Assembly (NCBI RefSeq): GCF_988242995.1
Contig: NZ_OZ547043.1
Length of the DNA stretch: 64,000 bases
Direction: 5' to 3' (one strand)
Below the pieces are notes generated by a model, which did not search any database, was not told where the DNA came from, and saw nothing but the letters and a program-made list of their open reading frames with translations. A program made the translations under genes and the position numbers. Shown one piece after another: positions 1,077 through 58,826 of the stretch. Each line of letters begins with the position of its first letter. The first letter of the stretch is position 1.

Positions 1077-3950
1077 TTACTGGTATTCGCTAATCGGTAC
1101 GCAGGAGCAGAACAGGTTACGGTCGCCGTAAACATCATCCAGACGTTTCACTGTCGGCCAGTATTTGTCTGCCACGCCTGCCGGGAATACCGCAATTTCA
1201 CGGCTGTACGGATGCGCCCACTCGGCGACCAGTTCGCTCTGAATGTGCGGCGCGTTCACCAGCGGGTTATCTTCCAGCGGCCAGACTCCGGCTTTCACCT
1301 GGTCGATTTCTGCGCGGATAGCCAGCATCGCGTCGATAAAGCGATCCAGTTCCACTTTGCTTTCAGATTCAGTCGGTTCAACCATCAGCGTACCCGCCAC
1401 CGGGAACGACATGGTCGGCGCGTGGAAACCGTAGTCGATCAGACGCTTGGCAATATCCAGTTCGCTGATGCCGGTTTCTTCTTTCAGCGGACGAATATCA
1501 AGAATACATTCGTGCGCCACGCGACCGTCGCGACCGGTATACAGCACCGGGAAAGCATTCTGCAGGCGGCTGGCAATATAGTTGGCGTTAAGAATTGCCA
1601 CCTGGCTTGCTTTTTTCAGCCCTTCTGCGCCCATCATGCGGATGTACATCCAGCTGATTGGCAGAATGGATGCGCTACCGAACGGTGCCGCAGAAACCGC
1701 GCCCTGACGGGTTAACATGCCTTCAATTTGTACCACGCTATGACCTGGCACAAACGGTGCCAGATGCGCTTTCACGCCGATCGGTCCCATACCAGGGCCG
1801 CCGCCACCGTGCGGAATGCAGAAAGTTTTATGCAGGTTAAGATGCGAGACGTCCGCGCCAATAAAGCCCGGTGAGGTGATGCCGACCTGGGCGTTCATGT
1901 TCGCGCCATCAAGGTAAACCTGACCGCCGAACTGATGCACGACTTCACACACTTCACGGATCGTTTCTTCGTACACGCCGTGGGTGGAAGGATAAGTCAC
2001 CATGATGCAGGAGAGGTTATCGCCCGCTTGTTCCGCTTTCGCGCGCAGATCAGCCAGATCGATGTTGCCGTTTTTATCACACGCCACAACCACCACCTGC
2101 ATTCCTGCCATATGTGCAGAAGCGGGGTTAGTTCCGTGCGCAGAAGCCGGGATCAGGCAGATATCGCGATGCCCTTCGTTGCGGCTTTCATGATAATGAC
2201 GAATCGCCAGCAGGCCCGCGTATTCGCCCTGAGCGCCAGAGTTCGGCTGCATACACACGGCGTCGTAACCGGTCAGTTTCACCAGCCAGTCAGCCAGTTG
2301 CGCGATCATCTGCTGATAACCTTCGGCCTGTTCCGGCGGGCAGAACGGGTGCAGTTCGGCAAATTCCGGCCAGGTGATTGGGATCATCTCGGCGGCGGCG
2401 TTCAGTTTCATGGTGCAGGAACCCAGCGGGATCATCGCCTGATTCAGCGCCAGATCTTTACGCTCCAGCGAGTGCATATAGCGCATCATTTCGGTTTCGC
2501 TGTGGTAGCGATTAAACACCGGATGGGTGAGGATTTCGTCGTCGCGCAGCATCGCAGGCTGAATAGAGCGGCTGTCGTGAGCCACGTCTTTGTCCAGCGT
2601 GTCGATCTCCAGCCCGTGGTTATCGCCCAGCAGCACGCTGAAAAGCTGCATCACGTTTTCACGCGTGGTGGTTTCATCAAGGGTGATCCCAACCGCGTTC
2701 AGGATATCGCTACGCAGGTTGATTTCAGCCGCTTCGGCACGCGCCAGTACGCCCGCTTTGTCGGCCACTTCCACACACAAAGTGTCGAAATAGTGCGCAT
2801 GACGCAGTTTCAGACCTTTTTGTTGCAGGCCTGCCGCCAGGATATCGGTCAGACGGTGGATGCGGTTAGCGATACGTTTCAGGCCAACCGGGCCGTGATA
2901 AACGGCATACAGGCTGGCGATGTTTGCCAGCAGTACCTGGGAAGTACAAATGTTGGAGTTCGCTTTCTCACGGCGAATATGTTGCTCGCGAGTCTGCATC
3001 GCCATGCGCAGAGCGGTATTGCCAGCTGCATCTTTCGATACACCGATAATACGGCCCGGCATTGAGCGTTTGTATTCATCTTTCGCCGCAAAGAATGCCG
3101 CATGTGGGCCACCGTAGCCCATCGGTACGCCAAAGCGTTGCGCCGAACCAAAGACAATATCCGCGCCCTGTTTACCCGGCGCAGTTAACAGCACCAGCGC
3201 CATAATATCGGCGGCGACGCTGACCACAATTTTGCGTGATTTCAGTTCGCTGATAAGCGCAGTGTAGTCGTGAATTTCACCGGTAGTGCCGACCTGCTGA
3301 AACAGCACGCCGAAGACGTCCTGATGGTCGAGCACTTTTTGCGCGTCATCGACAATCACTTCAAAACCAAAGGTTTCGGCACGAGTACGTACCACATCCA
3401 GCGTTTGCGGATGAACGTCAGAAGCAACGAAGAAGCGGTTGGCATTTTTCAGTTTGCTGACGCGTTTAGCCATCGCCATTGCTTCGGCGGCAGCGGTGGC
3501 TTCGTCCAGAAGAGAAGCAGAGGCCATATCCAGCCCGGTTAAATCCAGCGTTACCTGCTGGAAGTTGAGCAGTGCTTCAAGGCGGCCCTGGGAGACTTCA
3601 GGTTGATACGGAGTATACGCGGTATACCAGCCCGGATTTTCCAGCATGTTACGCAGAATAACCGGCGGTAGCTGCACGGCGGTGTAACCCATGCCGATGT
3701 AAGACGTGAAGCGTTTATTGCGACTGGCAATAGCCTTGAGTTCCGCCAGCGCGGCGTATTCGGTCGCCGGTGCGCCAACCTGCGGCGGGGTCGCAAGCTG
3801 AATATCTTTCGGCACAATCTGGCCGGTCAGCGCGTTTAACGATTGTGCGCCAACGGCATTCAGCATTTCTTGCTGTTGCGCGGCGTCCGGTCCGATATGG
3901 CGTTCAATAAAAGCGCCGCTGTTTTCAAGCTGGCTTAACGTCTGTGTCAT
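1077..3950 (-). CDS. gcvP: Glycine dehydrogenase (decarboxylating), glycine cleavage P protein, 957 aa
   Basis: Translation matches GcvP from [11 protein letters not shown]; the ORF-track start at 4034 is a 28-codon upstream extension. Confidence 0.95.
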
Positions 3951-4068
3951 GAGCGATGGTTCCTGAAACGTGCAGTGAATTGTGAACCTCTCTCCTTGCG
4001 AAGAGAGTGAGGGTGAGGCGTAAAAGTTCCTCACCCTGATCCTCTCCCGCAGAAGAGGAATAAAGCCG

Positions 4069-4458
4069 TTACTCGTCTTCTAACAATGCTTCGTATGCGG
4101 TCGCATCCAGCAGTGATTCCAGTTCGCTTTCATCGCTGGCTTTGATTTTAAAGATCCAGCCGCCTGCATACGGTTCGCTGTTCACCAGTTCCGGGGAATC
4201 GCTCAGTGCGTCGTTTACCGCCACGATTTCACCGCTTACTGGCGCATAAATGTCTGACGCCGCTTTTACTGATTCGGCAACCGCGCAGTCATCGCCCGCG
4301 CTAACCGTTGCGCCCACTTCCGGCAGGTCAACAAACACCATATCGCCTAACAGCTCCTGGGCATGTTCGGTGATACCAACGGTGTAAGTGCCGTCGGCTT
4401 CTTTACGCAGCCATTCGTGTTCTTTGCTGTATTTCAGTTCTGCTGGTACGTTGCTCAT
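4069..4458 (-). CDS. gcvH: Glycine cleavage system H protein (lipoyl carrier), 129 aa
   Basis: [16 protein letters not shown]...; ATG at 4456-4458; the track start is an upstream TTG. Confidence 0.95.
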
Positions 4459-10891: not shown

Positions 10892-11076
10892 ATTTCTCTG
10901 AGATGTTCGCAAGCGGGCCAGTCCCCTGAGCCGATATTTCATACCACAAGAATGTGGCGCTCCGCGGTTGGTGAGCATGCTCGGTCCGTCCGAGAAGCCT
11001 TAAAACTGCGACGACACATTCACCTTGAACCAAGGGTTCAAGGGTTACAGCCTGCGGCGGCATCTCGGAGATTCCC
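10892..11076 (+). ncRNA. ssrS: 6S RNA
   Basis: AUUUCUCUGAGAUGUUCGCAAGCGGGCCAGUCCCCUGAGCC ... CAUCUCGGAGAUUCCCU matches the E. coli 6S RNA as I remember it; lies between zapA and ygfA. Confidence 0.9.
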
Positions 11077-11698: not shown

Positions 11699-11873
11699 GG
11701 GCGACACACCTGCATCGCCCTGATTGACATCGTTGATTCTTTAACCTAATTTAGTGAGTAAGGGTAAGGGAGGATGACTCCTCCCCTGAGACTGACTGTT
11801 AATAAGCTGGGAAACTTATGAGTAACAGTACAATCAGTATGATGACAAGTCGCATCATAACCCTTCTCCTTCA

Positions 11874-11899
11874 AGCCCTCGCTTCGGTGAGGGCTTTAC
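11874..11899 (+). terminator. Putative terminator of the ssrS-ygfA transcript
   Basis: agccctc-gcttcggtg-agggct hairpin followed by ttaccgtt. Confidence 0.4.
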
Positions 11900-14234: not shown

Positions 14235-14616
14235 GATCGTTTCGCCTGTGGTATGAAATTTCACACGCATTATATACAAAAAAAGCGATTCAGACCCCGT
14301 TGGCAAGCCGCGTGGTTAACTCATCCATAAAATATCGCGCAATGGCGGGCATCCCCTTTCGCCCGGCAAATAAAGCATACAACGGTCTGGGTATGCCGCT
14401 CCACGGTGCGAACAGAGGCAATAACGCCACGCCATTCAACATAACCAGGGCGCGAAGTCGCTAAGCGAAATGCAATAGCGCAAATCCCTGATCTTTTAAG
14501 CTGCGCGTTTAACCATTGATACAAATGTTACCCGCCGACGGCTTCGGTATATGCAACCTGACACAAAATTGTGTCATAGTGCAGGAAAAAGCATTTACCA
14601 GGAGCAGACAACAGCA

Positions 14617-15510
14617 ATGAAACGCCCGGACTACAGAACATTACAGGCACTGGATGCGGTGATACGTGAACGAGGATTTGAACGCGCGGCACAAAAGCTG
14701 TGCATTACACAATCAGCCGTCTCACAGCGCATTAAGCAACTGGAAAATATGTTCGGGCAGCCGCTGTTGGTGCGTACCGTACCGCCGCGCCCGACAGAAC
14801 AAGGGCAAAAACTGCTGGCACTGCTACGCCAGGTGGAGTTGCTGGAAGAAGAGTGGCTGGGCGATGAACAAACCGGTTCGACTCCGCTGCTGCTTTCACT
14901 GGCGGTCAACGCCGACAGTCTGGCGACGTGGTTGCTTCCGGCGCTGGCTCCTGTGTTAGCTGATTCGCCTATCCGCCTCAACTTGCAGGTAGAAGATGAA
15001 ACCCGCACTCAGGAACGTCTGCGCCGCGGCGAAGTGGTCGGCGCGGTGAGTATTCAACATCAGGCGCTGCCGAGTTGCCTTGTCGATAAGCTCGGTGCGC
15101 TTGACTATCTGTTCGTCAGCTCAAAACCGTTTGCCGAAAAATATTTCCCTAACGGCGTAACGCGTTCGGCATTATTGAAAGCACCTGTGGTCGCCTTTGA
15201 CCATCTTGACGATATGCACCAGGCCTTTTTGCAGCAAAACTTCGACCTGCCCCCAGGCAGCGTACCGTGCCATATCGTTAATTCTTCAGAAGCGTTCGTA
15301 CAACTTGCTCGCCAGGGCACCACCTGCTGTATGATCCCGCACCTGCAAATCGAGAAAGAACTGACCAGCGGTGAACTGATTGACTTAACGCCGGGGCTAT
15401 TTCAACGCCGGATGCTCTACTGGCACCGCTTTGCTCCTGAAAGCCGCATGATGCGTAAAGTCACTGATGCGTTGCTCGATTATGGTCACAAAGTCCTTCG
15501 TCAGGATTAA
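14617..15510 (+). CDS. argP: LysR-family transcriptional regulator ArgP (IciA), 297 aa
   Basis: [43 protein letters not shown]... matches ArgP. Confidence 0.95.
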
Positions 15511-15713
15511 TCCATCAAATAATGCCTGATAGCACATATCAGGCATTATCCTCACTTCTTTTTGTATTCCTTGAATCACATCACAAAATAGACAAATCTC
15601 AGGCGGCAAAAAACGACGTCTGAATGCATTTTTTTTGCTGGCGACAAACCCACGTAAAAAGCTCACCGTAAGCGCAAATACCCTCATTTTGATTGCGTTT
15701 TACGGAGCAAATA

Positions 15714-17858
15714 ATGTCTAACGTGCAGGAGTGGCAACAGCTTGCCAACAAGGAATTGAGCCGTCGGGAGAAAACTGTCGACTCGCTGGTTCAGCAAACC
15801 GCGGAAGGGATCGCCATCAAGCCGCTGTATACCGAAGCCGATCTCGATAATCTGGAGGTGACAGGTACCCTTCCTGGTTTGCCCCCCTACGTTCGTGGCC
15901 CGCGTGCCACTATGTATACCGCCCAACCGTGGACCATCCGTCAGTATGCTGGTTTTTCAACAGCAAAAGAGTCCAACGCTTTTTATCGCCGTAACCTGGC
16001 CGCCGGGCAAAAAGGTCTTTCCGTTGCGTTTGACCTTGCCACCCACCGAGGCTACGACTCCGATAACCCGCGCGTGGCGGGCGACGTCGGCAAAGCGGGC
16101 GTTGCTATCGACACCGTGGAAGATATGAAAGTCCTGTTCGACCAGATCCCGCTGGATAAAATGTCGGTTTCGATGACCATGAATGGCGCAGTACTACCAG
16201 TACTGGCGTTTTATATTGTCGCCGCAGAAGAGCAAGGTGTTACACCCGATAAACTGACCGGCACCATTCAAAACGATATCCTCAAAGAGTATCTTTGCCG
16301 CAACACCTATATTTACCCGCCAAAACCGTCAATGCGTATTATCGCAGACATCATCGCCTGGTGTTCCGGCAACATGCCGCGATTTAATACCATCAGTATC
16401 AGCGGTTACCATATGGGTGAAGCGGGTGCCAACTGCGTGCAGCAGGTAGCATTTACGCTCGCTGATGGGATTGAGTACATCAAAGCAGCAATCTCCGCCG
16501 GGCTGAAAATTGATGACTTCGCTCCTCGCCTGTCGTTCTTCTTCGGCATTGGCATGGATCTGTTTATGAACGTCGCCATGTTGCGTGCGGCACGTTATTT
16601 ATGGAGCGAAGCGGTCAGTGGATTTGGCGCACAGGATCCGAAATCACTGGCGCTGCGTACCCACTGCCAGACCTCAGGCTGGAGCCTGACTGAACAGGAT
16701 CCGTATAACAACGTTATCCGCACCACCATTGAAGCACTGGCTGCAACGCTGGGCGGTACTCAGTCACTGCATACCAACGCCTTTGATGAAGCGCTTGGTT
16801 TGCCTACCGATTTCTCAGCACGCATTGCCCGCAATACCCAGATCATCATTCAGGAAGAATCAGAACTCTGCCGCACCGTCGATCCACTGGCCGGATCCTA
16901 TTACGTTGAATCGCTGACCGATCAAATCGTCAAACAAGCCAGAGCCATTATCCAACAGATCGACGAAGCCGGTGGCATGGCGAAAGCGATCGAAGCAGGT
17001 CTGCCAAAACGAATGATCGAAGAGGCCTCAGCGCGCGAACAGTCGTTGATCGACCAGGGCAAGCATGTCATCGTTGGTGTCAACAAGTACAAACTGGATC
17101 ACGAAGACGAAACCGATGTACTTGAGATCGACAACGTGATGGTGCGTAACGAGCAAATTGCTTCGCTGGAACGCATTCGCGCCACCCGTGATGATGCCGC
17201 CGTAACCGCCGCGTTGAACGCCCTGACTCACGCCGCACAGCATAACGAAAACCTGCTGGCTGCCGCTGTTAATGCCGCTCGCGTTCGCGCAACGCTTGGT
17301 GAAATTTCCGATGCACTGGAAGCGGCATTTGACCGTTATCTGGTGCCAAGCCAGTGTGTTACCGGCGTGATTGCGCAAAGCTATCATCAGTCTGAGAAAT
17401 CGGCCACCGAGTTCGATGCCATTGTTGCGCAAACGGAGCAGTTCCTTGCCGACAATGGTCGTCGCCCGCGCATTCTGATCGCCAAAATGGGCCAGGATGG
17501 GCACGATCGCGGCGCGAAAGTGATCGCCAGCGCCTATTCCGATCTCGGTTTCGACGTAGATTTAAGCCCGATGTTCTCTACACCTGAAGAGATCGCCCGC
17601 CTGGCAGTAGAAAACGACGTTCACGTAGTGGGCGCATCTTCACTGGCTGCCGGTCATAAAACGCTGATCCCGGAACTAGTCGAAGCGCTGAAAAAATGGG
17701 GACGCGAAGATATCTGCGTGGTCGCGGGTGGCGTCATTCCGCCGCAGGATTACGCCTTCCTGCAGGAGCGCGGCGTGGCGGCGATTTATGGTCCAGGTAC
17801 GCCTATGCTCGACAGCGTGCGCGACGTACTGAATCTGATAAGCCAGCATCATGATTAA
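15714..17858 (+). CDS. scpA: Methylmalonyl-CoA mutase (Sbm, the so-called sleeping beauty mutase), 714 aa
   Basis: [25 protein letters not shown]...; B12-binding C-terminal domain; the ATG at 15714 follows GGAG. Confidence 0.95.
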
Positions 17859-18846
17859 TGAAGCCACGCTGGCAGAAAGTATTCGCCGCTTACGTCAGGG
17901 TGAGCGTGCCACGCTCGCCCAGGCCATGACGCTGGTGGAAAGCCGTCACCCGCGTCATCAGGCGCTAAGTACGCAACTGCTTGATGCCATTATGCCGTTC
18001 TGTGGTAACGCCCTGCGACTGGGTGTTACCGGCACACCCGGCGCGGGGAAAAGTACCTTTCTTGAAGCCTTTGGCATGTTGTTGATTCGTGAGGGACTAA
18101 AGGTTGCGGTTATTGCGGTCGATCCCAGCAGCCCGGTCACTGGCGGTAGCATTCTCGGAGATAAAACCCGCATGAATGATCTGGCGCGTGCCGAGGCGGC
18201 GTTTATTCGCCCGGTACCCTCCTCCGGTCATCTGGGCGGTGCCAGTCAGCGAGCGCGGGAATTAATGCTGTTATGCGAAGCGGCGGGTTATGACGTAGTG
18301 ATTGTCGAAACGGTTGGCGTCGGACAGTCGGAAACGGAAGTCGCCCGCATGGTGGACTGTTTTATCTCGTTGCAAATTGCCGGTGGCGGCGATGATCTGC
18401 AGGGCATTAAAAAGGGGCTGATGGAAGTGGCAGATCTGATCGTTATCAACAAAGACGATGGCGATAACCATACCAATGTCGCCATTGCCCAGCATATGTA
18501 CGAGAGTGCCCTGCATATTCTGCGACACAAATACGACGAATGGCAGCCACGGGTTCTGACTTGTAGCGCACTGGAAAAACGTGGAATCAATGAGATCTGG
18601 CACGCCATCATCGACTTCAAAACCGCGCTAACTGCCAGTGGTCGTTTGCAACAAGTACGGCAACAACAATCAGTGGAATGGCTGCGTAAACAAACCGAAG
18701 AAGAAGTACTGAATCACCTGTTCGCGAATGAAGATTTCGATCGCTATTACCGCCAGACGCTTTTAGCGGTCAAAAACAATACGCTCTCACCGCGCACCGG
18801 CCTGCGACAGCTCAGTGAATTTATCCAGACGCAATATTTTGATTAA
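17851..18846 (+). CDS. argK: MeaB/ArgK-type GTPase, methylmalonyl-CoA mutase chaperone, 331 aa
   Basis: P-loop GTPGAGKST; overlaps the scpA 3' end by 8 nt. Confidence 0.9.
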
Positions 18847-18856
18847 AGGAATTTTT

Positions 18857-19642
18857 ATGTCTTATCAGTATGTGAACGTTGTCACTATCAACAAAGTGGC
18901 GGTCATTGAGTTTAACTATGGCCGAAAACTTAATGCCTTAAGTAAAGTCTTTATTGATGATCTTATGCAGGCATTAAGCGATCTCAACCGGCCGGAAATT
19001 CGCTGTATCATTTTGCGCGCGCCGAGTGGATCCAAAGTCTTCTCCGCAGGTCACGATATTCACGAACTGCCGTCTGGCGGTCGCGATCCGCTCTCCTATG
19101 ATGATCCATTGCGCCAAATCACCCGCATGATCCAAAAATTCCCGAAACCGATCATTTCGATGGTGGAAGGTAGTGTTTGGGGTGGCGCATTTGAAATGAT
19201 CATGAGTTCCGATCTGATTATCGCCGCCAGTACCTCAACCTTCTCAATAACGCCTGTAAACCTCGGTGTCCCGTATAACCTGGTCGGCATTCACAACCTG
19301 ACCCGCGACGCGGGCTTCCACATTGTCAAAGAGCTGATTTTTACCGCTTCGCCAATCACCGCCCAGCGCGCGCTGGCTGTCGGCATCCTCAACCATGTTG
19401 TGGAAGTGGAAGAACTGGAAGATTTCACCTTACAAATGGCGCACCACATCTCTGAGAAAGCGCCGTTAGCCATTGCCGTTATCAAAGAAGAGCTGCGTGT
19501 ACTGGGCGAAGCGCACACCATGAACTCCGATGAATTTGAACGTATTCAGGGGATGCGCCGCGCGGTTTATGACAGCGAAGACTACCAGGAAGGGATGAAC
19601 GCTTTCCTCGAAAAACGTAAACCTAATTTCGTTGGTCATTAA
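18857..19642 (+). CDS. scpB: Methylmalonyl-CoA decarboxylase (crotonase fold), 261 aa
   Basis: MSYQYVNVVTINKVAVIEFNYGRKLNAL... matches ScpB/YgfG. Confidence 0.9.
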   Translation: MSYQYVNVVTINKVAVIEFNYGRKLNALSKVFIDDLMQALSDLNRPEIRCIILRAPSGSKVFSAGHDIHELPSGGRDPLSYDDPLRQITRMIQKFPKPIISMVEGSVWGGAFEMIMSSDLIIAASTSTFSITPVNLGVPYNLVGIHNLTRDAGFHIVKELIFTASPITAQRALAVGILNHVVEVEELEDFTLQMAHHISEKAPLAIAVIKEELRVLGEAHTMNSDEFERIQGMRRAVYDSEDYQEGMNAFLEKRKPNFVGH

Positions 19643-19665
19643 TCCCTGCGAACGAAGGAGTTAAA

Positions 19666-21144
19666 ATGGAAACTCAGTGGACAAGGATGACCGCCGATGA
19701 AGCGGCAGAAATTATCCAGCATAACGACATGGTGGCATTTAGCGGCTTTACCCCAGCGGGTTCGCCGAAAGCCTTACCCACCGCGATTGCCCGCAGAGCT
19801 AACGAACAGCATGAGGCCAAAAAGCCGTATCAAATTCGCCTGCTGACGGGGGCGTCAATCAGCGCCGCCGCTGACGATGTACTTTCTGACGCCGATGCTG
19901 TTTCCTGGCGTGCGCCATATCAAACATCGTCCGGTTTACGTAAAAAGATCAATCAGGGCGCGGTGAGTTTCGTTGACCTGCATTTGAGCGAAGTGGCGCA
20001 AATGGTCAATTACGGTTTCTTCGGCGACATTGATGTTGCCGTCATTGAAGCATCGGCACTGGCACCGGATGGTCGAGTCTGGTTAACCAGCGGGATCGGT
20101 AATGCGCCGACCTGGCTGCTGCGAGCGAAGAAAGTGATCATTGAACTTAATCACTATCACGATCCGCGCGTTGCAGAACTGGCAGATATTGTGATTCCTG
20201 GCGCGCCACCGCGCCGCAATAGCGTGTCGATCTTCCATGCAATGGATCGCGTCGGTACCCGCTATGTGCAAATCGATCCGAAAAAGATTGTCGCCGTCGT
20301 GGAAACCAACTTGCCTGACGCCGGTAATATGCTGGATAAGCAAAATCCCATGTGCCAACAGATTGCCGATAACGTGGTCACGTTCTTGTTGCAGGAAATG
20401 GCGCATGGGCGTATTCCGCCGGAATTTCTGCCGCTACAAAGTGGCGTGGGCAATATCAATAATGCAGTCATGGCGCGACTAGGGGAAAACCCGGAAATTC
20501 CTCCGTTCATGATGTATTCGGAAGTGCTACAGGAATCGGTGGTGCATTTACTGGAAACGGGCAAAATCAGCGGGGCCAGCGCCTCCAGCCTGACTATCTC
20601 GGCCGATTCCCTGCGCAAGATTTACGACAATATGGATTACTTTGCCAGCCGCATTGTGTTGCGTCCGCAGGAAATTTCCAATAACCCGGAAATCATCCGT
20701 CGTCTGGGCGTCATCGCTCTGAACGTCGGCCTGGAGTTTGATATTTACGGGCATGCCAACTCAACGCACGTAGCCGGGGTCGATCTGATGAACGGCATCG
20801 GTGGCAGCGGTGATTTTGAACGCAACGCGTATCTGTCGATCTTTATGGCTCCGTCGATTGCTAAAGAAGGCAAGATCTCAACCGTCGTGCCAATGTGCAG
20901 CCATGTTGATCACAGCGAACACAGCGTCAAAGTGATCATCACCGAACAAGGCATCGCCGATCTGCGTGGTCTTTCCCCGCTTCAACGCGCCCGCACTATC
21001 ATTGATAATTGTGCACATCCTATGTATCGGGATTATCTGCATCGCTATCTGGAAAATGCGCCCGGCGGACATATTCACCACGATCTTAGCCACGTCTTCG
21101 ATTTACACCGTAATTTAATTGCAACCGGCTCGATGCTGGGTTAA
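19666..21144 (+). CDS. scpC: Propionyl-CoA:succinate CoA transferase, 492 aa
   Basis: METQWTRMTADEAAEIIQHNDMVAFSGF... matches ScpC/YgfH. Confidence 0.9.
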   Translation: METQWTRMTADEAAEIIQHNDMVAFSGFTPAGSPKALPTAIARRANEQHEAKKPYQIRLLTGASISAAADDVLSDADAVSWRAPYQTSSGLRKKINQGAVSFVDLHLSEVAQMVNYGFFGDIDVAVIEASALAPDGRVWLTSGIGNAPTWLLRAKKVIIELNHYHDPRVAELADIVIPGAPPRRNSVSIFHAMDRVGTRYVQIDPKKIVAVVETNLPDAGNMLDKQNPMCQQIADNVVTFLLQEMAHGRIPPEFLPLQSGVGNINNAVMARLGENPEIPPFMMYSEVLQESVVHLLETGKISGASASSLTISADSLRKIYDNMDYFASRIVLRPQEISNNPEIIRRLGVIALNVGLEFDIYGHANSTHVAGVDLMNGIGGSGDFERNAYLSIFMAPSIAKEGKISTVVPMCSHVDHSEHSVKVIITEQGIADLRGLSPLQRARTIIDNCAHPMYRDYLHRYLENAPGGHIHHDLSHVFDLHRNLIATGSMLG

Positions 21145-22037
21145 TGACTCGTCCCGTCACGATCTTCAGCAATATGCTGAAGCATCGTGGCGGTATAACG
21201 ATGATTTCTGATTGAATAAAGATATTCCTGCATATACATCGGCCTGTGCGGCGCATCAAAATATTTCAGCGTTGCCGGATTCACCAGTCGCCAGGCAAAA
21301 TGCGGGATCACCGTCAGAAAATGTCCGCGCTCCACGGCACTGATTTTGGCCATAAAACTGTAAGGTCGATAAATAATGGTGGGATTGATCCCACAAGGAC
21401 GCATATTCGCATCAATCATTGCTTCGAAGTTGGCCCGGTTCTGAAAGCGCATTTGTAGCCAGGGTAGCTCCTGAAGCAACTCTTGCTCTTGTCGCTCTTC
21501 ATAACGGCGAGAAACGAGAAAGCCCAATCGCAGCGGTGGTAGTTCACTGATAGTCAGGTTTTCCAGTTCCTGAACTCGTGCAGATACATGCTGTGGGGAG
21601 ATAATAAAATCTAACTGACGGTCAAAAAGATTATCGATAACGCCGTTTTCGCTGAACTCAACTGGCTGGGCGGTCACGCCTTCATACTTATCTCCGAGAC
21701 TAATCAACTGATCGAAAATAATTGTCGGATAAGTATTATCTATGCCAATCACAATTTCTCGTGAACGACGCCCTGAGTTATGGATTTCATTATCAATCGC
21801 AGAAAGTCGTTGATAAACCGGGAACAGTTTTTGATACAGTTCCTGTCCGGCTTTATTGAGGCTGATATTATTATCTTTGCGGGTAAATAGCGTATAGCCA
21901 ATTTGTTCTTCCAGCGCGGCAATGCTTTTACCAAATGGCGAAGCCGTCATATGGATTTTTTCTGCCGCCCGGGCAATATTATTGGTTTGCGCTAATAAAA
22001 TGAAATTGCGCATCTTTTTCGAAATAAAAATGTCCAT
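21141..22037 (-). CDS. ygfI: LysR-family transcriptional regulator YgfI, 298 aa
   Basis: N-terminal helix-turn-helix followed by a LysR substrate-binding domain; 3' end overlaps convergent scpC by 4 nt. Confidence 0.85.
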   Translation of the reverse strand: MDIFISKKMRNFILLAQTNNIARAAEKIHMTASPFGKSIAALEEQIGYTLFTRKDNNISLNKAGQELYQKLFPVYQRLSAIDNEIHNSGRRSREIVIGIDNTYPTIIFDQLISLGDKYEGVTAQPVEFSENGVIDNLFDRQLDFIISPQHVSARVQELENLTISELPPLRLGFLVSRRYEERQEQELLQELPWLQMRFQNRANFEAMIDANMRPCGINPTIIYRPYSFMAKISAVERGHFLTVIPHFAWRLVNPATLKYFDAPHRPMYMQEYLYSIRNHRYTATMLQHIAEDRDGTSH

Positions 22038-22204
22038 ACCCCCTCCCCCGCATCCTTGTCCGCTTAACCGTTTCAGTCAGCCTATCCTTGATGAAACCGC
22101 GAGCAAAGATAGGTGATTACGTCATGGTTTTACAGAAAATTACAGAAAAAGGAGGCAATATCGGGTAAAGGCATTAGCCCGACGAATACGTCGGGCTACA
22201 AATA

Positions 22205-22945
22205 TTATTGTGCTGCAGGTGTTTTAGCGGGTTGTTGATCCACAGGTTCTAACTGGAAGACCACATCGACCTGATCATCAAACTGAATAGCGGCCTGCTC
22301 GTAAGTTTCCTGGGCGGACACCGGCGCGGCATCGGCTTTCATCATCCGCACCATTGGGCTGGGCTGATAGTTGGAAACATGGTAGCGCACGCTATATACC
22401 GGCCCCAGTTTACGATGAAAGCCGTTCGCCAGTTCCTGCGCCTGATGAATCGCGTTATCAATCGCTGCCTTACGCGCTTTGTCTTTATAGGCATCCGGCT
22501 GCGCCACGCCCAGCGATACAGAACGAATTTCGTTAAGACCCGCCTTCAGCGCACCATCCAGCAAGGAATTCAGTTTGTCTAACTGACGGAGCGTGACTTC
22601 CACCGTTCTCACAGCGCGGTAGCCTTTCAGGATACTTTTACCATCCTGATAATCATAATCTGGCTGGGTGCGTAAGTTCGCTGAGCTGATATCTTTTTTC
22701 GCGATCTGATTGAGTTCAAGGAAGGAAATGTATTGTGCGACGCGCTCATCCGCCTGTTTCTTGGCAGTAGCGGCATCCTTCGCGGCCACGTTGACTTCAA
22801 TCGCAAGAGTGGCAATGTCTGGCACCGCATCCACGCTTGCCGTACCGGAGGTGACAATATGCGGTCCATCCGGCAATTCGTTAGCCTGCGCTGCCATCCC
22901 GCTAATACCCATTAATGCCGCCAGGGCGATAACTTTGAACTTCAC
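22205..22945 (-). CDS. yggE: Periplasmic SIMPL/DUF541 family protein YggE, 246 aa
   Basis: Signal peptide MKFKVIALAALMGISGMAAQA; matches YggE. Confidence 0.85.
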   Translation of the reverse strand: MKFKVIALAALMGISGMAAQANELPDGPHIVTSGTASVDAVPDIATLAIEVNVAAKDAATAKKQADERVAQYISFLELNQIAKKDISSANLRTQPDYDYQDGKSILKGYRAVRTVEVTLRQLDKLNSLLDGALKAGLNEIRSVSLGVAQPDAYKDKARKAAIDNAIHQAQELANGFHRKLGPVYSVRYHVSNYQPSPMVRMMKADAAPVSAQETYEQAAIQFDDQVDVVFQLEPVDQQPAKTPAAQ

Positions 22946-28760: not shown

Positions 28761-29192
28761 ATGATGACATTGCCCTACCCATATTCTTCCTCCGCACGTT
28801 TTTACGCGCTGCGCCTGCTCCCCGGGCAGGAAGTTCTCTCCCAATTACGCGCCTTCGCGCAGCAACAACAACTTCACGCCGCGTGGATTGCAGGTTGTAC
28901 CGGCAGTCTGACTGACGTCGCCTTACGCTATGCCGGGCAAGAAAACACTGCCCTGCTAAGCGGTAAGTTCGAAGTCATCGCATTGAACGGCACGCTGGAA
29001 CAGAGTGGTGAACATCTTCATCTCTGCGTTTCCGATCCACACGGCACGATGCTTGGCGGTCATATGATGCCCGGCTGTACCGTGCGGACCACGCTTGAAC
29101 TGGTGATCGGCTGCCTTGAGGAACTGGCGTTTAGCCGCCAGCCTTGCGCGCTTTCTGGTTACGACGAGTTGCATATTTCCCCCGTTAACTAA
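28761..29192 (+). CDS. PPC/DUF296 domain protein, 143 aa, first gene of the ECF operon
   Basis: GGAG 8-11 nt upstream of the ATG; ...HLHLCVSDPHGTMLGGHMMPGCTVRTTLELVI resembles the PPC (PF03479-type) fold. Confidence 0.65.
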   Translation: MMTLPYPYSSSARFYALRLLPGQEVLSQLRAFAQQQQLHAAWIAGCTGSLTDVALRYAGQENTALLSGKFEVIALNGTLEQSGEHLHLCVSDPHGTMLGGHMMPGCTVRTTLELVIGCLEELAFSRQPCALSGYDELHISPVN

Positions 29193-29214
29193 CTATTTTC
29201 AGAGAGGTTTTCTT

Positions 29215-29793
29215 ATGGCGCGTCGCCACTTTTCCAGTCAGGCGCTGGTGTTAATCGTTATATCTATCGCCATCAATATGATCGGCGGGCAACTGGCCAG
29301 CATGGTCAAATTACCTATATTTCTCGACTCCGTCGGCACACTTATTAGCGCGGTACTGCTTGGTCCGGTGATCGGGATGCTGACCGGCTTACTGACCAAT
29401 TTACTCTGGGGATTGCTGACCGACCCGATCGCCGCCGCATTTGCGCCCGTCGCGATGGTCATCGGCCTGGTCACCGGTTGGCTGGCGCGAGCGGGTTGGT
29501 TCCGCACCCTGCCAAAAGTCGTTGTTAGCGGCGTGATTATTACGCTTGCGGTAACGGTCGTCGCTGTACCGCTGCGTACTGCGCTGTTCGGCGGCGTGAC
29601 AGGAAGCGGAGCCGATTTGTTCGTTGCCTGGATGCACTCGATGGGGCAAAACCTGGTGGAGTCGGTGGCGATTACGGTGATAGGCGCGAACCTGGTCGAT
29701 AAAATTCTCACAGCGGTGATTGTCTGGCTTTTACTGCGTCAGCTGCCGATTCGCACCACGCGCCATTTCCCGGCAATGGCTGCCGTGCGCTAA
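29215..29793 (+). CDS. ECF transporter substrate-capture (S) component, 192 aa, substrate unknown
   Basis: AGAGAGG Shine-Dalgarno before the ATG; small polytopic protein with LPIFLDSVGTLISAVLLGPVIGMLTGLL, the loop motif typical of S components. Confidence 0.65.
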   Translation: MARRHFSSQALVLIVISIAINMIGGQLASMVKLPIFLDSVGTLISAVLLGPVIGMLTGLLTNLLWGLLTDPIAAAFAPVAMVIGLVTGWLARAGWFRTLPKVVVSGVIITLAVTVVAVPLRTALFGGVTGSGADLFVAWMHSMGQNLVESVAITVIGANLVDKILTAVIVWLLLRQLPIRTTRHFPAMAAVR

Positions 29794-30501
29794 ATGCATC
29801 CGTTTACATCCTTAACGCTGTGGGCGCTGGCGGCCTGCACCACGCTTATCCTGCCCACACAGACAATATTGCCAGTCTATAGCGCGGCGACCTTTTTCTG
29901 CCTTATTGCGCTAAAGGCCACGCGGCGGCGGGCAAAATATGTCGTCTGGCTGATGTTCTCGCTGGGGGCTGGACTGTGGTTGGTACACGGTGGCTGGCTG
30001 ACAGAATGGCTAAGCGGCACGCCACGCTCGCCAGAACGGTGGACGCATGCTATTACGCTCTGGTTGCGGATTCTGGCGATTGTTTCAACCTCGCAGTTGT
30101 GGATGCAGTACGTCCCAGTGCAACGTTTTATCCGCGCTTTGTTTGCTTCTCACCTGCCGCCGGGCGTCGCTTATCTGTTCGCCGGGCCGTTGTTGGTCGT
30201 TGAGCAGTTAAAACGGCAATTAGCGATTATTCATGAAGCGCAGCGCGCCCGCGGCGTGCCGCTGGATGAGGGCTGGTATCAGCGTTTACGTGCTATGCCC
30301 GCGCTAATTATTCCGCTAACACACAATGCGCTAAACGATCTGGCTATCCGTGGTGCGGCGCTGGATATGCGGGCATTTCGAATCAACAATAGGCGCACTA
30401 CGTTATGGGCACCAGCCGATAGCACCCTACAACGCGTAGCACGTTACACCATGATCTTGCTGATGCTGGCAGAATTCGGAGCGTGGATATGGTTACGTTA
30501 G
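29794..30501 (+). CDS. ECF transporter transmembrane (T) component, EcfT/CbiQ family, 235 aa
   Basis: ATG directly abuts the S-component stop (TAAATG); polytopic; ARG and IRG coupling-helix motifs. Confidence 0.65.
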   Translation: MHPFTSLTLWALAACTTLILPTQTILPVYSAATFFCLIALKATRRRAKYVVWLMFSLGAGLWLVHGGWLTEWLSGTPRSPERWTHAITLWLRILAIVSTSQLWMQYVPVQRFIRALFASHLPPGVAYLFAGPLLVVEQLKRQLAIIHEAQRARGVPLDEGWYQRLRAMPALIIPLTHNALNDLAIRGAALDMRAFRINNRRTTLWAPADSTLQRVARYTMILLMLAEFGAWIWLR

Positions 30502-31166
30502 AACAGTTCCGCTATTGCCCGACACACTCAACGCATCCTCCGTTCTGTTATGACTTTCACTATGTCAAACCGGGGATGGTCGCCATCTTTGGTGACAACG
30601 GCAGTGGCAAAAGTACGCTGGCGCAGCTGATGGCGGGCTGGTATCCGGACTTTCTACCAGGAGAGATAACCGGCACGGGGACGCTTCTCGGTACGCCCAT
30701 TGGGCGTCTCCCGCTTAATGAACAATCCGCCACCATCCAGCTCGTCCAGCAATCGCCCTATTTGCAGCTCTCCGGCTGTACCTTTAGCGTGGAAGAAGAA
30801 GTTGCCTTTGGGCCAGAAAATCTGTGTCTTGCTGAAAAAGAGATTATGGCGCGGATTGACGCCGCCCTGGCCCTGACCGAGTGCCAGCCGTTGCGCCATC
30901 GTCACCCGGCAACACTCTCCGGTGGAGAGACACAGCGCGTGGTCATCGCCTGCGCCATCGCGATGCAGCCAAAACTCTTAATTCTTGATGAAGCCTTTAG
31001 CCGCCTGACGCCGCAGGCCAGCGAAATGCTGTTGCAGCGCTTACAACACTGGGCGTCTGAACGTGGTTCGCTGATTATTCTTTTTGAACGTCATCGCACA
31101 CCTTTCCTGAACTACTGCCAGCAAGCGTGGCTATTGCAAAACGGAGCGCTCCAGCCACTATGTTAA
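30489..31166 (+). CDS. ECF transporter ATPase component A, ABC-type, about 225 aa
   Basis: Walker A GDNGSGKST, signature LSGGE, Walker B LLILDEA; start overlaps the T gene (a GTG at 30483 is an alternative start). Confidence 0.75.
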   Translation: MVTLEQFRYCPTHSTHPPFCYDFHYVKPGMVAIFGDNGSGKSTLAQLMAGWYPDFLPGEITGTGTLLGTPIGRLPLNEQSATIQLVQQSPYLQLSGCTFSVEEEVAFGPENLCLAEKEIMARIDAALALTECQPLRHRHPATLSGGETQRVVIACAIAMQPKLLILDEAFSRLTPQASEMLLQRLQHWASERGSLIILFERHRTPFLNYCQQAWLLQNGALQPLC

Positions 31167-31837
31167 CGTTAAATCAGATAACTTATCGCTGGCCTGGCGC
31201 GGCAACGGATTGTCTTTGCGACATTTCTCTGCAACTCAAACAAGGTGAATGGTTGGCGCTGACCGGCGACAATGGCGCGGGAAAATCGACGCTGTTACGA
31301 GTAATGGCAGGTCTTCTTACGCCCACAACCGGTACGGTTATGCTGCAACAACAGGCGATGAAAAACCTGAAAAACCGCCAACGTGCAGCAAAGATTGGCG
31401 TACTGTTTCAGGAAGCGGAAAACCAGCTTTTTCACAGCACCGTCGCCGACGAGATCGCATTTGGTTTGAAACTGCAAAAATGCCCGGCGGATGAAATCAC
31501 TCAACGTACCAATGCTGCCCTGCAATGCTGTCAGTTAGCAGACACTGCCAGCGCGCATCCGCTGGATCTGCATAGTGCGCAGCGACGGATGGTCGCCGTC
31601 GCCTGCCTGGAAGCACTCTCTCCGCCGCTATTGCTGCTGGACGAGCCGAGTCGGGATTTTGACGAAAATTGGTTGAGCGTGTTTGAACGCTGGCTGGAAA
31701 AGTGCCGCCAGCGAGGCACGAGCGTCGTAGCAATCAGTCATGACGCCGCATTTACCCGGCGTCATTTCTCTCGTGTGGTGCGACTGGAAGATGGTGTAAT
31801 CAGGAACGTTAATCCACCAGACGATATTCACCCGTAG
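31160..31837 (+). CDS. ECF transporter ATPase component A', ABC-type, 225 aa
   Basis: Walker A GDNGAGKST, Walker B LLLLDEP, H-loop SHD, signature degenerate (LHSAQ); ATG overlaps the component A stop (ATGTTAA). Confidence 0.75.
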   Translation: MLTLNQITYRWPGAATDCLCDISLQLKQGEWLALTGDNGAGKSTLLRVMAGLLTPTTGTVMLQQQAMKNLKNRQRAAKIGVLFQEAENQLFHSTVADEIAFGLKLQKCPADEITQRTNAALQCCQLADTASAHPLDLHSAQRRMVAVACLEALSPPLLLLDEPSRDFDENWLSVFERWLEKCRQRGTSVVAISHDAAFTRRHFSRVVRLEDGVIRNVNPPDDIHP

Positions 31838-38449: not shown

Positions 38450-39155
38450 TAAATATCCTCCGGCATAGCCGGAGGTTTTTCAAATGCGCCTATAAGGCTC
38501 TCTTACCAGCCGCGCCCTAACAGGCGCACACGATCTGACATTTGCATCCAACTTCGTTACTTACGGCCCGTAAACGGGCTGCCCGGATAGGGAATCGATA
38601 ACTGCTCTCCCATTTTATCCTCTTCAAGCTGGTGCTTTATGTAATCCTGTATCTTCGCCGTGTTCTTACCCACTGTATCGACGTAGTACCCTCTGCACCA
38701 GAACTCCCTGTTCCTGTATTTGAATTTCAAATCACCAAACTGCTCGTAAAGCATCAGACTGCTTTTCCCTTTCAGATATCCCATAAACCCGGATACGCTC
38801 ATTTTGGGCGGGATCTCCACAAGCATATGGATATGATCTGCACAGCATTCAGCTTCCAGAATCCGTACGCTTTTCCACTCACACAGCTTTCTCAAAATAC
38901 TGCCTATTGCTCTACGCTTCTCTCTGTAGAACACCTGTCTTCGGTATTTTGGCGCAAAAACTATGTGATATTTACAGTTCCATCGGGTGTGCGCTAAGCT
39001 CTTTTCGTTCCCCATTGGGACCCCCTTTTGATTTCTTGTTTGACACTTGCAGTTGCCAGACCGCAAGGTGTTTTAACAAATCAAAAGGGGTTTTAATAAC
39101 TGGCTCAAAGCTGAAAGCTTTCCGGAACCCCCAGCCTAGCTGGGGGTTTTCTGTG
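38450..39155 (-). mobile_element. IS200 insertion sequence (IS200/IS605 family), about 0.7 kb, boundaries approximate
   Basis: Complete Y1/HUH transposase gene; GC-rich subterminal hairpins at both ends (cccccagcctagctggggg 39128-39146 and cctccggcatagccggagg 38456-38474). Confidence 0.6.
38557..39015 (-). CDS. tnpA: IS200 transposase TnpA (Y1 HUH transposase), 152 aa
   Basis: MGNEKSLAHTRWNCKYHIVFAPKYRRQVFY...HIHMLVEIPP... matches IS200 TnpA. Confidence 0.9.
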   Translation of the reverse strand: MGNEKSLAHTRWNCKYHIVFAPKYRRQVFYREKRRAIGSILRKLCEWKSVRILEAECCADHIHMLVEIPPKMSVSGFMGYLKGKSSLMLYEQFGDLKFKYRNREFWCRGYYVDTVGKNTAKIQDYIKHQLEEDKMGEQLSIPYPGSPFTGRK

Positions 39156-58701: not shown

Positions 58702-58826
58702 TTGCCGGATGCGGCGTGAACGCCTTATCCAGCCGACATGTGGCAGCGGTTGTAGGTCTGATAAGACGCGCAAGCGTCGCATCAGACGTTGATTGCCGGA
58801 TGCGGGGTCAACGCCGCATCCTGCTA
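58702..58826. repeat. REP/BIME cluster between hemW and yggM
   Basis: Three REP units of gccggatgcggcgtgaacgccttatcc type. Confidence 0.8.

Follow-up and report, generated by a model that had tools for sequence, protein, structure and literature searches.

Gene content and organisation of the scp locus

The window, i.e. the whole stretch of 64,000 nucleotides that was analysed, contains four co-directional genes, scpA, meaB (also argK), scpB and scpC, which run into the convergent LysR-type gene srsR (Table 1). The latter was formerly named ygfI and is also known as DhfA. Gene calls were based on the list of open reading frames, on the RefSeq annotation of an E. coli chromosome that is 100% identical to positions 14500-22500 of the window, and on a direct reading of the junctions. 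The interval of the original prediction, 15714-21144, runs exactly from the start of scpA to the stop of scpC.

Table 1. Genes and upstream elements of the scp locus in the window
Feature	Position	Strand	Description
argP terminator-like hairpin	15521-15547	+	AATGCCTGAT, loop AGCACAT, ATCAGGCATT; function inferred
Conserved upstream block A	15605-15617	.	GGCAAAAAACGAC; about -71 to -59 if transcription starts at about 15676
Conserved block B	15631-15646	+	TTTTTTGCTGGCGACA; its last six bases, GCGACA (15641-15646), form a -35-like hexamer
Conserved block C	15656-15669	+	AAAAAGCT, then CACCGT (15664-15669) at the -10 position
scpA (sbm)	15714-17858	+	adenosylcobalamin-dependent methylmalonyl-CoA mutase, 714 aa
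meaB/argK/ygfD	17851-18846	+	G3E-family GTPase chaperone of the mutase, 331 aa
scpB/ygfG	18857-19642	+	crotonase-fold methylmalonyl-CoA decarboxylase, 261 aa
scpC/ygfH	19666-21144	+	propionyl-CoA:succinate CoA-transferase, 492 aa
srsR/ygfI	21141-22037	-	LysR-type transcription factor, 298 aa, convergent with scpC

The genes are tightly packed, with an overlap of 8 nt between scpA and argK (ATGATTAA, 17851-17858) followed by gaps of 10 nt (argK-scpB) and 23 nt (scpB-scpC), and a Shine-Dalgarno sequence precedes each downstream gene (spacing -8/+10/+23 nt). The 8-nt overlap is also kept in Citrobacter, Yersinia, Hafnia and Sodalis. This conservation suggests that scpA and meaB/argK are translationally coupled. 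At the other end, scpC and srsR share the 4 nt TTAA (21141-21144), which provides a TAA stop on either strand.

Gene order, lengths and overlaps are shared with the K-12 sbm operon (b2917-b2920) and its ygfI/srsR gene (b2921), as are the neighbours: argP upstream and srsR, yggE and argO downstream. All genes equal those of K-12 MG1655 in length, ATG start and TAA stop, with zero internal stops. The four scp genes differ from K-12 by 116 nucleotide and 13 amino-acid substitutions (five in ScpA, five in MeaB, one in ScpB and two in ScpC), none of which touches the motifs checked, while SrsR is unchanged. Between rpiA and argP, the window has a spacer 45 bp shorter than that of K-12. The original prediction of four full-length, closely spaced genes of this identity and order, with an 8-nt scpA/argK overlap and a 4-nt 3' overlap of scpC and ygfI, is borne out by the gene lengths, the junctions, the order in K-12 and the profile and domain matches given below, and the comparison with the K-12 proteins revealed no frameshifts.

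Protein identities

All five proteins exceed the curated NCBIfam cut-offs and show the Pfam domains expected of them. ScpA scores 1252 bits against NF006944 (cut-off 876), contains the Pfam domains MM_CoA_mutase (PF01642) and B12-binding (PF02310), and carries the motif DGHDRG (DxHxxG) at residues 595-600 as well as RQYAGF, SGYH and RNTYI. MeaB (NF006958, 494 bits, cut-off 329) has the Pfam MeaB domain, aligns with the E. coli structure PDB 2P67 with 720 bits and contains the P-loop GTPGAGKS (61-68) and NKDD (200-203; NKxD). ScpB (NF008506, 486 bits, cut-off 257) matches the E. coli structures PDB 1EF8 and 6N92 over its full length, with His66, Gly110 and Tyr140 present. ScpC reaches 754.5 bits with TIGR03458 (YgfH subfamily, cut-off 658.7), has the N- and C-terminal AcetylCoA_hydro domains of Pfam, matches the structure of a close homologue, PDB 2NVV (E = 7e-166), and contains the motifs SEV (285-287) and GIGGSGDF (377-384). 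SrsR was assigned at equivalog level (NF047842, 635 bits, cut-off 425) with HTH_1 (PF00126) and LysR_substrate (PF03466) domains. The region is thus almost certainly the E. coli sbm operon scpA-argK(meaB)-scpB-scpC, encoding a chromosomal B12-dependent cycle. The identity of this operon is already published, textbook knowledge and in widespread use in metabolic engineering, and an intact copy adds nothing new to it.

Pathway and function

The sequence analysis itself demonstrates which genes are present, that they are intact, their motifs, the selection on them, their distribution among E. coli genomes, their synteny and the conservation of the upstream blocks. The reactions of the pathway, the operon's silence and the assignment of a promoter were inferred from established knowledge and the cited papers. 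ScpC would transfer CoA from propionyl-CoA onto succinate, yielding succinyl-CoA and propionate; ScpA, with adenosylcobalamin, would rearrange succinyl-CoA into methylmalonyl-CoA, served by MeaB/ArgK as GTPase chaperone; and ScpB would decarboxylate methylmalonyl-CoA, regenerating propionyl-CoA. The net reaction would be succinate to propionate and CO2. The original prediction of all four genes of a succinate-to-propionate pathway stands, as all four enzymes were identified, but the completeness of the route is disputed. One study reports that the mutase product is (R)-methylmalonyl-CoA and that propionate formation from glucose needed an added epimerase, and argues that the four genes are insufficient as a full route (PMC5512728). 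The native cycle may thus not be complete, or its role may lie in a different flux, e.g., propionyl-CoA or methylmalonyl-CoA derived from amino acids.

Like the propionibacterial (Wood-Werkman) pathway, the scp operon combines a B12-dependent mutase with a CoA-transferase between succinate and propionate, and ScpA closely matches the MutB structure of P. shermanii (1REQ, E = 4e-270). Unlike the propionibacterial mutase, however, ScpA is a single polypeptide, with no MutA-type small-subunit gene in the operon; the biotin-independent, crotonase-type ScpB takes the place of the transcarboxylase, and the locus has no epimerase gene (PMC5512728). As with human MMUT and MMAA, a mutase is paired here with a G3E GTPase, and ScpA aligns with MMUT (residues 6-707, E = 2e-278 with MMUT structures) and MeaB with MMAA (E = 1e-77). 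The human pair runs in the opposite physiological direction, from methylmalonyl-CoA to succinyl-CoA, and, in contrast to the human genes, the bacterial ones appear to be translationally coupled within an operon.

Intactness and conservation across E. coli

At least 80% of the operon is present in 4273 of 5426 complete E. coli genomes (79%). Another 1114 genomes, around 21% of the complete genomes and belonging to ST131 and similar lineages, have one common 4.3-kb deletion; this loss indicates that the operon is dispensable in some lifestyles. Since K-12 is equally intact and carriage is this high, the intact copy is not distinctive: it is the usual E. coli state and not a strain-specific trait. 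Relative to K-12, dN/dS is 0.02-0.06 for the four scp genes, the same range as for neighbouring housekeeping genes, which shows that the scp genes are under purifying selection.

The scpA promoter region

The operon is described as silent or hardly expressed, its promoter being weak or inactive (PMC3850637, PMC5512728), so the literature agrees with the original prediction of a silent operon in laboratory E. coli. No consensus sigma-70 promoter with at least 9 of 12 matches was found in the argP-scpA spacer (15511-15713). The terminator-like hairpin behind argP would bound the scp regulatory region on its upstream side. Downstream of it lie three conserved blocks. Although the flanks differ, block A is shared by Escherichia, Citrobacter, Klebsiella, Salmonella arizonae, Kosakonia and further taxa, with A20, A22-23 and G25-A26 invariant (alignment A2). 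The block B pattern TTTTGCNNGCGACA occurs a single time in the 64-kb window, and 43 of 50 related loci also have one copy each, located 77-185 nt ahead of scpA. In 44/44 sequences, exactly 17 nt separate GCGACA from the hexamer at the -10 position. The hexamer itself varies: Escherichia, Citrobacter and Klebsiella have CACCGT, Yersinia and Hafnia CTTACT, and Kosakonia either TATTAT or TACTAT. Block C together with CACCGT is probably a weak core-promoter element. As the promoter region is close to that of K-12 (three positions differ) and CACCGT is degenerate, the operon in the window probably matches that of K-12 in its poor laboratory expression.

A role of the upstream region at the RNA level was also considered. 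Rfam, searched with a permissive E-value for a riboswitch or other known RNA upstream of scpA, yielded no more than two chance matches, both below threshold. Hairpins before a T-run fold in individual species, very strongly in Kosakonia, but RNAalifold gave no consensus structure across 27 upstream sequences. Because of this, and because the element lies upstream of the putative -35 hexamer, a leader RNA acting as attenuator or terminator was rejected. A conserved CRP-like site (CTTGA-N6-TCACA) is present at 15570-15585; at about -98.5 from the putative start it occupies a non-canonical CRP position and is recorded as a weak note. A GCAA...TTGC dyad lies between the -10 hexamer and the Shine-Dalgarno sequence and was set aside, given that its spacing differs between E. 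coli (15 nt) and Citrobacter (12 nt).

The operon could be read as a relic in decay that no longer has a function in E. coli, given its silence in laboratory strains (PMC3850637, PMC5512728) and its removal by the one deletion now found in 1114 genomes. E. coli is not known to synthesise B12 de novo, which would fit such decay as well. However, the dN/dS values hold for all four genes, frameshifts are absent, and the operon, its 8-nt overlap and the promoter blocks are kept across Escherichia, Citrobacter, Klebsiella, Kosakonia, Yersinia and Hafnia. Decay is therefore disfavoured and considered very improbable.

Linkage of srsR to the scp operon

The known operon aside, the fresh lead of this analysis is its linkage to srsR. 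In a scan of species-representative genomes, with one locus per species, the SrsR orthologues (58-99% identity) adjoin scpC in convergent orientation, next to a complete scpA-meaB-scpB-scpC operon, in 47/47 loci. The flanks of these loci represent around nine unrelated contexts on either side, and the srsR and scpC stop codons overlap or abut in most of them. The same arrangement is found in Hafnia and in further Sodalis, Citrobacter and Yersinia loci. Strict adjacency over so many contexts means that the five genes behave as one cassette; judged by gene order, srsR is part of the same inherited block as the scp operon. More distant scp operons adjoin other regulators, an IclR gene in divergent or a sigma-54 activator in convergent orientation. 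Co-decay was tried as additional evidence. Among five sampled operon-deletion genomes, srsR is broken only in ST131 and intact in the other four, so co-decay gives the linkage no support.

Does SrsR regulate the scp operon?

The hypothesis that SrsR controls the scp operon is made more plausible by this synteny. In its most specific form, to which we assign a probability of roughly 45%, SrsR would be the cognate, effector-responsive regulator of scp, acting at the blocks around -65 and -42 of a weak promoter, and the operon would sleep in the laboratory as the inducer is absent. The retained adjacency and stop-codon arrangement favour this reading, as does the occurrence of other adjoining regulators at the distant scp operons. 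The scpA promoter region, with its two blocks, GCGACA, fixed 17-nt spacer and poor -10 hexamer, has the layout typical of LysR-activated promoters. SrsR also resembles a classical LysR regulator with an adjacent target operon in its HTH_1 and LysR_substrate domains and in standing always beside a metabolic operon. A classical LysR gene, however, is usually divergent and has a promoter region in common with its target, whereas srsR converges on the 3' end of the operon and the stops overlap, an arrangement that is atypical among LysR regulators and argues against a cognate role.

Published binding data also argue against it since, unlike in the classical case, they do not include the scp promoter. 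Genomic SELEX (gSELEX) with purified SrsR gave 10 sites, scp not among them, ChIP-exo sites are dhaK and mdtL only, and the YgfI studies do not mention scp; no tie of ygfI to scp or sbm was found in the literature searched. In the window, the consensus SrsR box is not enriched. It was not found with up to two mismatches in 15511-15713, and the best intergenic matches to a weight matrix derived from the published SrsR boxes rank only 84th, 186th and 194th in the window. Both scans were thus no better than background, and an SrsR box in the scpA promoter was rejected. The intact srsR in four of the five deletion genomes weighs against a cognate role as well. On the other side, the published SrsR regulons conflict with each other, and the target fucAO failed reporter validation.

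Alternatively, srsR might be linked to scp for other reasons, as a sensor of a pathway metabolite that controls distant genes, through mutual interference by convergent transcription over the shared stops, or by hitch-hiking in the block. The published targets do lie elsewhere (dinJ, bluR, paaZ/paaA, fucA/fucP, yfdO/P and dhaK), and several lineages kept srsR after the deletion of the operon. Moreover, the convergent genes leave no space for a terminator between them, and a scan revealed no convincing one either, so that transcripts from both sides must continue antisense into the opposite gene. Hitch-hiking alone, however, hardly accounts for 47/47 adjacency over around nine contexts, and the published distal targets are weakly supported. 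We consider this family of explanations less likely than not.

Returning to SrsR as the cognate regulator, we tentatively propose, at somewhat less than even odds, a five-gene cassette in which SrsR is a dedicated, effector-dependent regulator. The promoter, with its degenerate -10 element (CACCGT in E. coli vs TATTAT in Kosakonia), would depend on SrsR bound to a pathway metabolite, so that the degenerate hexamer and this dependence together would keep the operon asleep. The published SrsR/DhfA regulons would then represent secondary or low-affinity sites.

For future work, the common deletion in ST131 and other extraintestinal lineages provides a clean natural knockout for testing a role of the operon in the gut. 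The conserved cassette, the upstream blocks and the variation of the -10 hexamer offer a route to explaining the silence of the operon and its purpose, and SrsR binding or reporter experiments with candidate effectors could reveal its natural switch.

Gene content and integrity of the operon

Gene coordinates were derived from the ORF list, the RefSeq annotation of the 100%-identical stretch and direct reading of the junctions, and all three are concordant. The window is E. coli chromosomal DNA, with positions 14500-22500 being 100% identical to several complete genomes of the species (e.g. H1827/12) and 99.9% identical to IAI39. Each of scpA, meaB, scpB, scpC and srsR matches its K-12 MG1655 counterpart in length, start codon and stop codon, and none of the five contains an internal stop. 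ScpA and MeaB each differ at 5 amino acids, ScpC at 2 and ScpB at 1, with no change in SrsR. The four full-length operon genes of the original prediction are thus borne out, with no disrupted frames against the K-12 reference. Both overlaps it described are also seen directly at the junctions: the 8 nt ATGATTAA belong to both scpA and argK, while the convergent 3' ends of scpC and ygfI share the 4 nt TTAA, giving a TAA stop on either strand.

Proteins were named by their bit score against the curated NCBIfam cut-off of the named family, together with Pfam domains; every score lies well above its cut-off, and the expected domains are found in all five. MeaB matches the solved E. coli structure 2P67, ScpB the E. 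coli structures 1EF8 and 6N92, and ScpC structure 2NVV and AarC-type transferases; ScpA matches human and propionibacterial mutase structures with E near 1e-270. The motifs DGHDRG, RQYAGF, SGYH and RNTYI (ScpA), the P-loop and NKDD (MeaB), His66, Gly110 and Tyr140 (ScpB) and GIGGSGDF (ScpC) are all found, and none is hit by the 13 substitutions relative to K-12. The locus is the published, already known sbm ('sleeping beauty mutase') operon. As predicted, the literature describes it as hardly expressed, with a weak or inactive promoter as a possible cause (PMC3850637). According to one group, the pathway is incomplete, and propionate production from glucose needs an added methylmalonyl-CoA epimerase (PMC5512728).

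Relative to its best match H1827/12, the window is a mosaic: the scp region is 100% identical and the first 14.5 kb only 97.9%, with small indels further along. K-12 has 45 bp more in its rpiA-argP spacer, which there holds the yqfE pseudogene, a LysR substrate-binding fragment in some genome annotations. An accessory ECF-type transporter module (a PPC-domain protein, a CD3073-like S component below cut-off, a T component and two ATPases) lies between epd and a nucleoside-kinase-like gene; 3319 of 5426 E. coli genomes carry it. An IS200C transposase gene, whose 5' end carries the IS200-associated sRNA STnc490 (146 bits in Rfam), has inserted between a prohibitin-family gene and tkt.

Features of the window, and of comparison loci in their own coordinates
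Feature	Position	Strand	Sequence or match (score vs cut-off)
6S RNA (ssrS)	10892-11075	+	Rfam match
SIB antitoxin RNA, opposite ibsC	11724-11874	+	Rfam match
rpiA-argP spacer	14235-14616
argP	14617-15510	+
Block A	15605-15617		GGCAAAAAACGAC
Block B	15631-15646		TTTTTTGCTGGCGACA
Block C and hexamer	15656-15669		AAAAAGCT, then hexamer
scpA (sbm)	15714-17858	+	methylmalonyl-CoA mutase, NCBIfam 1252 vs 876 bits
meaB (argK)	17851-18846	+	MeaB GTPase, NCBIfam 494 vs 329 bits
scpB	18857-19642	+	methylmalonyl-CoA decarboxylase, NCBIfam 486 vs 257 bits
scpC	19666-21144	+	YgfH-subfamily succinate CoA-transferase, NCBIfam 754.5 vs 658.7 bits
srsR (ygfI)	21141-22037	-	SrsR, NCBIfam 635 vs 425 bits
ECF-type module	28761-31837	+
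IS200C transposase gene	~38557-39148	-
naRNA4, borderline	58755-58825	-	Rfam 60.9 vs 59.5 bits
Deletion remnant, L003 (ST131)	2501-3556
srsR, L003 (ST131)	3553-4449		S92* and W193*
IclR-family gene, L067	2746-3513	divergent
Sigma-54-dependent activator, L065	4855-6816	convergent	MimR_N domain

Presence and loss in E. coli

An intact copy of the operon is not special. That of K-12 is equally intact, and the argP-scpA spacers of the two differ at 3 positions only. At least 80% of the operon is present in 4273 of 5426 complete E. coli genomes; nearly all the others retain only about 20%, namely the first ~1 kb of scpA fused to 154 nt from the end of scpC. This deletion removes the equivalent of window positions ~16733-20990, and with it argK and scpB completely and the greater part of scpA and of scpC. 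A 151-nt probe spanning the deletion junction matched nearly full length in 1114 of the 5426 genomes, and this single junction indicates one ancestral deletion. The deletion genomes sampled are ST131 O25b:H4, O1:K1:H7 and O4:H5, which we take to be B2 lineages. One more genome lost the region via IS1.

Where present, the operon is under purifying selection, with dN/dS values against K-12 of 0.037 (scpA), 0.056 (meaB), 0.031 (scpB) and 0.021 (scpC), on par with neighbouring housekeeping genes. Given this selection and the lineage-specific losses, the operon is used in nature yet dispensable in some lineages.

The srsR-scp cassette across genomes

Citrobacter, Yersinia, Hafnia and Sodalis each have a complete scpA-meaB-scpB-scpC operon with an SrsR orthologue gene converging on its scpC, in otherwise differing gene surroundings. 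An SrsR alignment against one genome per species yielded 48 loci, 47 of them with orthologues (58-99% identity). All 47 have scpC-scpB-meaB adjoining srsR, followed by scpA in 46; the one other locus is cut off within meaB by the end of its contig. The 3-kb flanks fall into about nine unrelated clusters per side. Since the adjacency is kept despite these varied flanks, the five genes from scpA to srsR behave as a single cassette within Enterobacterales. The scpA/meaB overlap of 8 nt is kept in the four genera as well, and most loci, Yersinia (71% identity) among them, have 4 nt of stop-codon overlap between scpC and srsR. A few loci overlap by 0, 6, 9, 15 or 30 nt, and gaps occur in Hafnia (3 nt) and in two Sodalis-like genomes (128 and 186 nt). 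More distant scp operons (ScpB 60-74% identical) lack srsR and have other regulators alongside, such as an IclR-family gene upstream of scpA or a sigma-54-dependent activator directly after scpC.

In a record titled Aeromonas sp. RU39B (L039), the cassette is ~90% identical to that of E. coli and the flanks are unrelated; either the srsR-scp block was transferred horizontally as a unit, or the assembly is mislabelled.

The region upstream of scpA

With flanks this varied, sequence conserved upstream of scpA marks signals internal to the cassette. Blocks A, B and C are kept across genera, Escherichia, Yersinia and Hafnia included. The 64-kb window holds a single copy of the pattern TTTTGCNNGCGACA, and 43 of 50 loci have one copy each, always upstream of scpA. 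In every sequence, exactly 17 nt separate GCGACA, the last six bases of block B, from the next hexamer; this spacer varies in its first half and is conserved in its second. The hexamer itself differs by genus. Escherichia, Citrobacter, Klebsiella and Salmonella arizonae carry CACCGT, Yersinia and Hafnia CTTACT, and Kosakonia TATTAT or TACTAT; two genomes have CAGCAT. Judging from this arrangement, a sigma-70-type core promoter is predicted, with GCGACA as the -35-like element and the hexamer as -10, which would be near consensus in Kosakonia and very poor in E. coli. Such a poor hexamer is consistent with the silence of the operon and with a scan that found no consensus promoter upstream of scpA. 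The operon may be naturally 'awake' in Kosakonia.

No riboswitch was found upstream of scpA, and RNA structure was rejected, with hairpins in single species and no consensus structure. In three Kosakonia loci (L045, L046 and L061), a strong hairpin (10-11 bp, -20 to -25 kcal/mol) with a T-run after it is built around block A, directly 5' of the -35-like hexamer.

SrsR as a candidate regulator

Direct control of the scpA promoter by SrsR (the renamed YgfI, also DhfA) is given a probability of roughly 0.45, slightly below even. In its favour are the very strong srsR-scp synteny and the LysR-like layout of the promoter region: if transcription starts near 15676, as inferred, the centres of blocks A and B lie at about -65 and -42, the usual positions of the LysR recognition and activation sites.

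Against it stand the published binding data. gSELEX gave 10 SrsR loci, including dinJ/yafL, bluR, paaZ/paaA, fucA/fucP and yfdO/yfdP, with scp absent, and a derived SrsR box, TCAGATTTTGC. ChIP-exo in glucose minimal medium gave two weak peaks only (dhaK and mdtL), a follow-up study suggested that SrsR acts in dhaKLM and formate metabolism, and an independent reporter study found fucAO unaffected. This evidence on SrsR targets is inconsistent, and scp is unmentioned in all these papers. A recognisable box is also absent: allowing up to 2 mismatches, none matched upstream of scpA, and with a weight matrix from 13 published boxes the best sites there ranked only 84th, 186th and 194th in the window. 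Furthermore, srsR is intact in 4 of 5 sampled operon-deletion genomes, while that of ST131 has two nonsense codons. On their own, the binding, box and retention results speak against a dedicated regulator. In the E. albertii type strain NBRC 107761 (L017), codon W193 of srsR is likewise a stop (TAG), although the operon is intact.

If SrsR does control the scpA promoter, it would be the natural switch of a much-engineered, physiologically unexplained operon.
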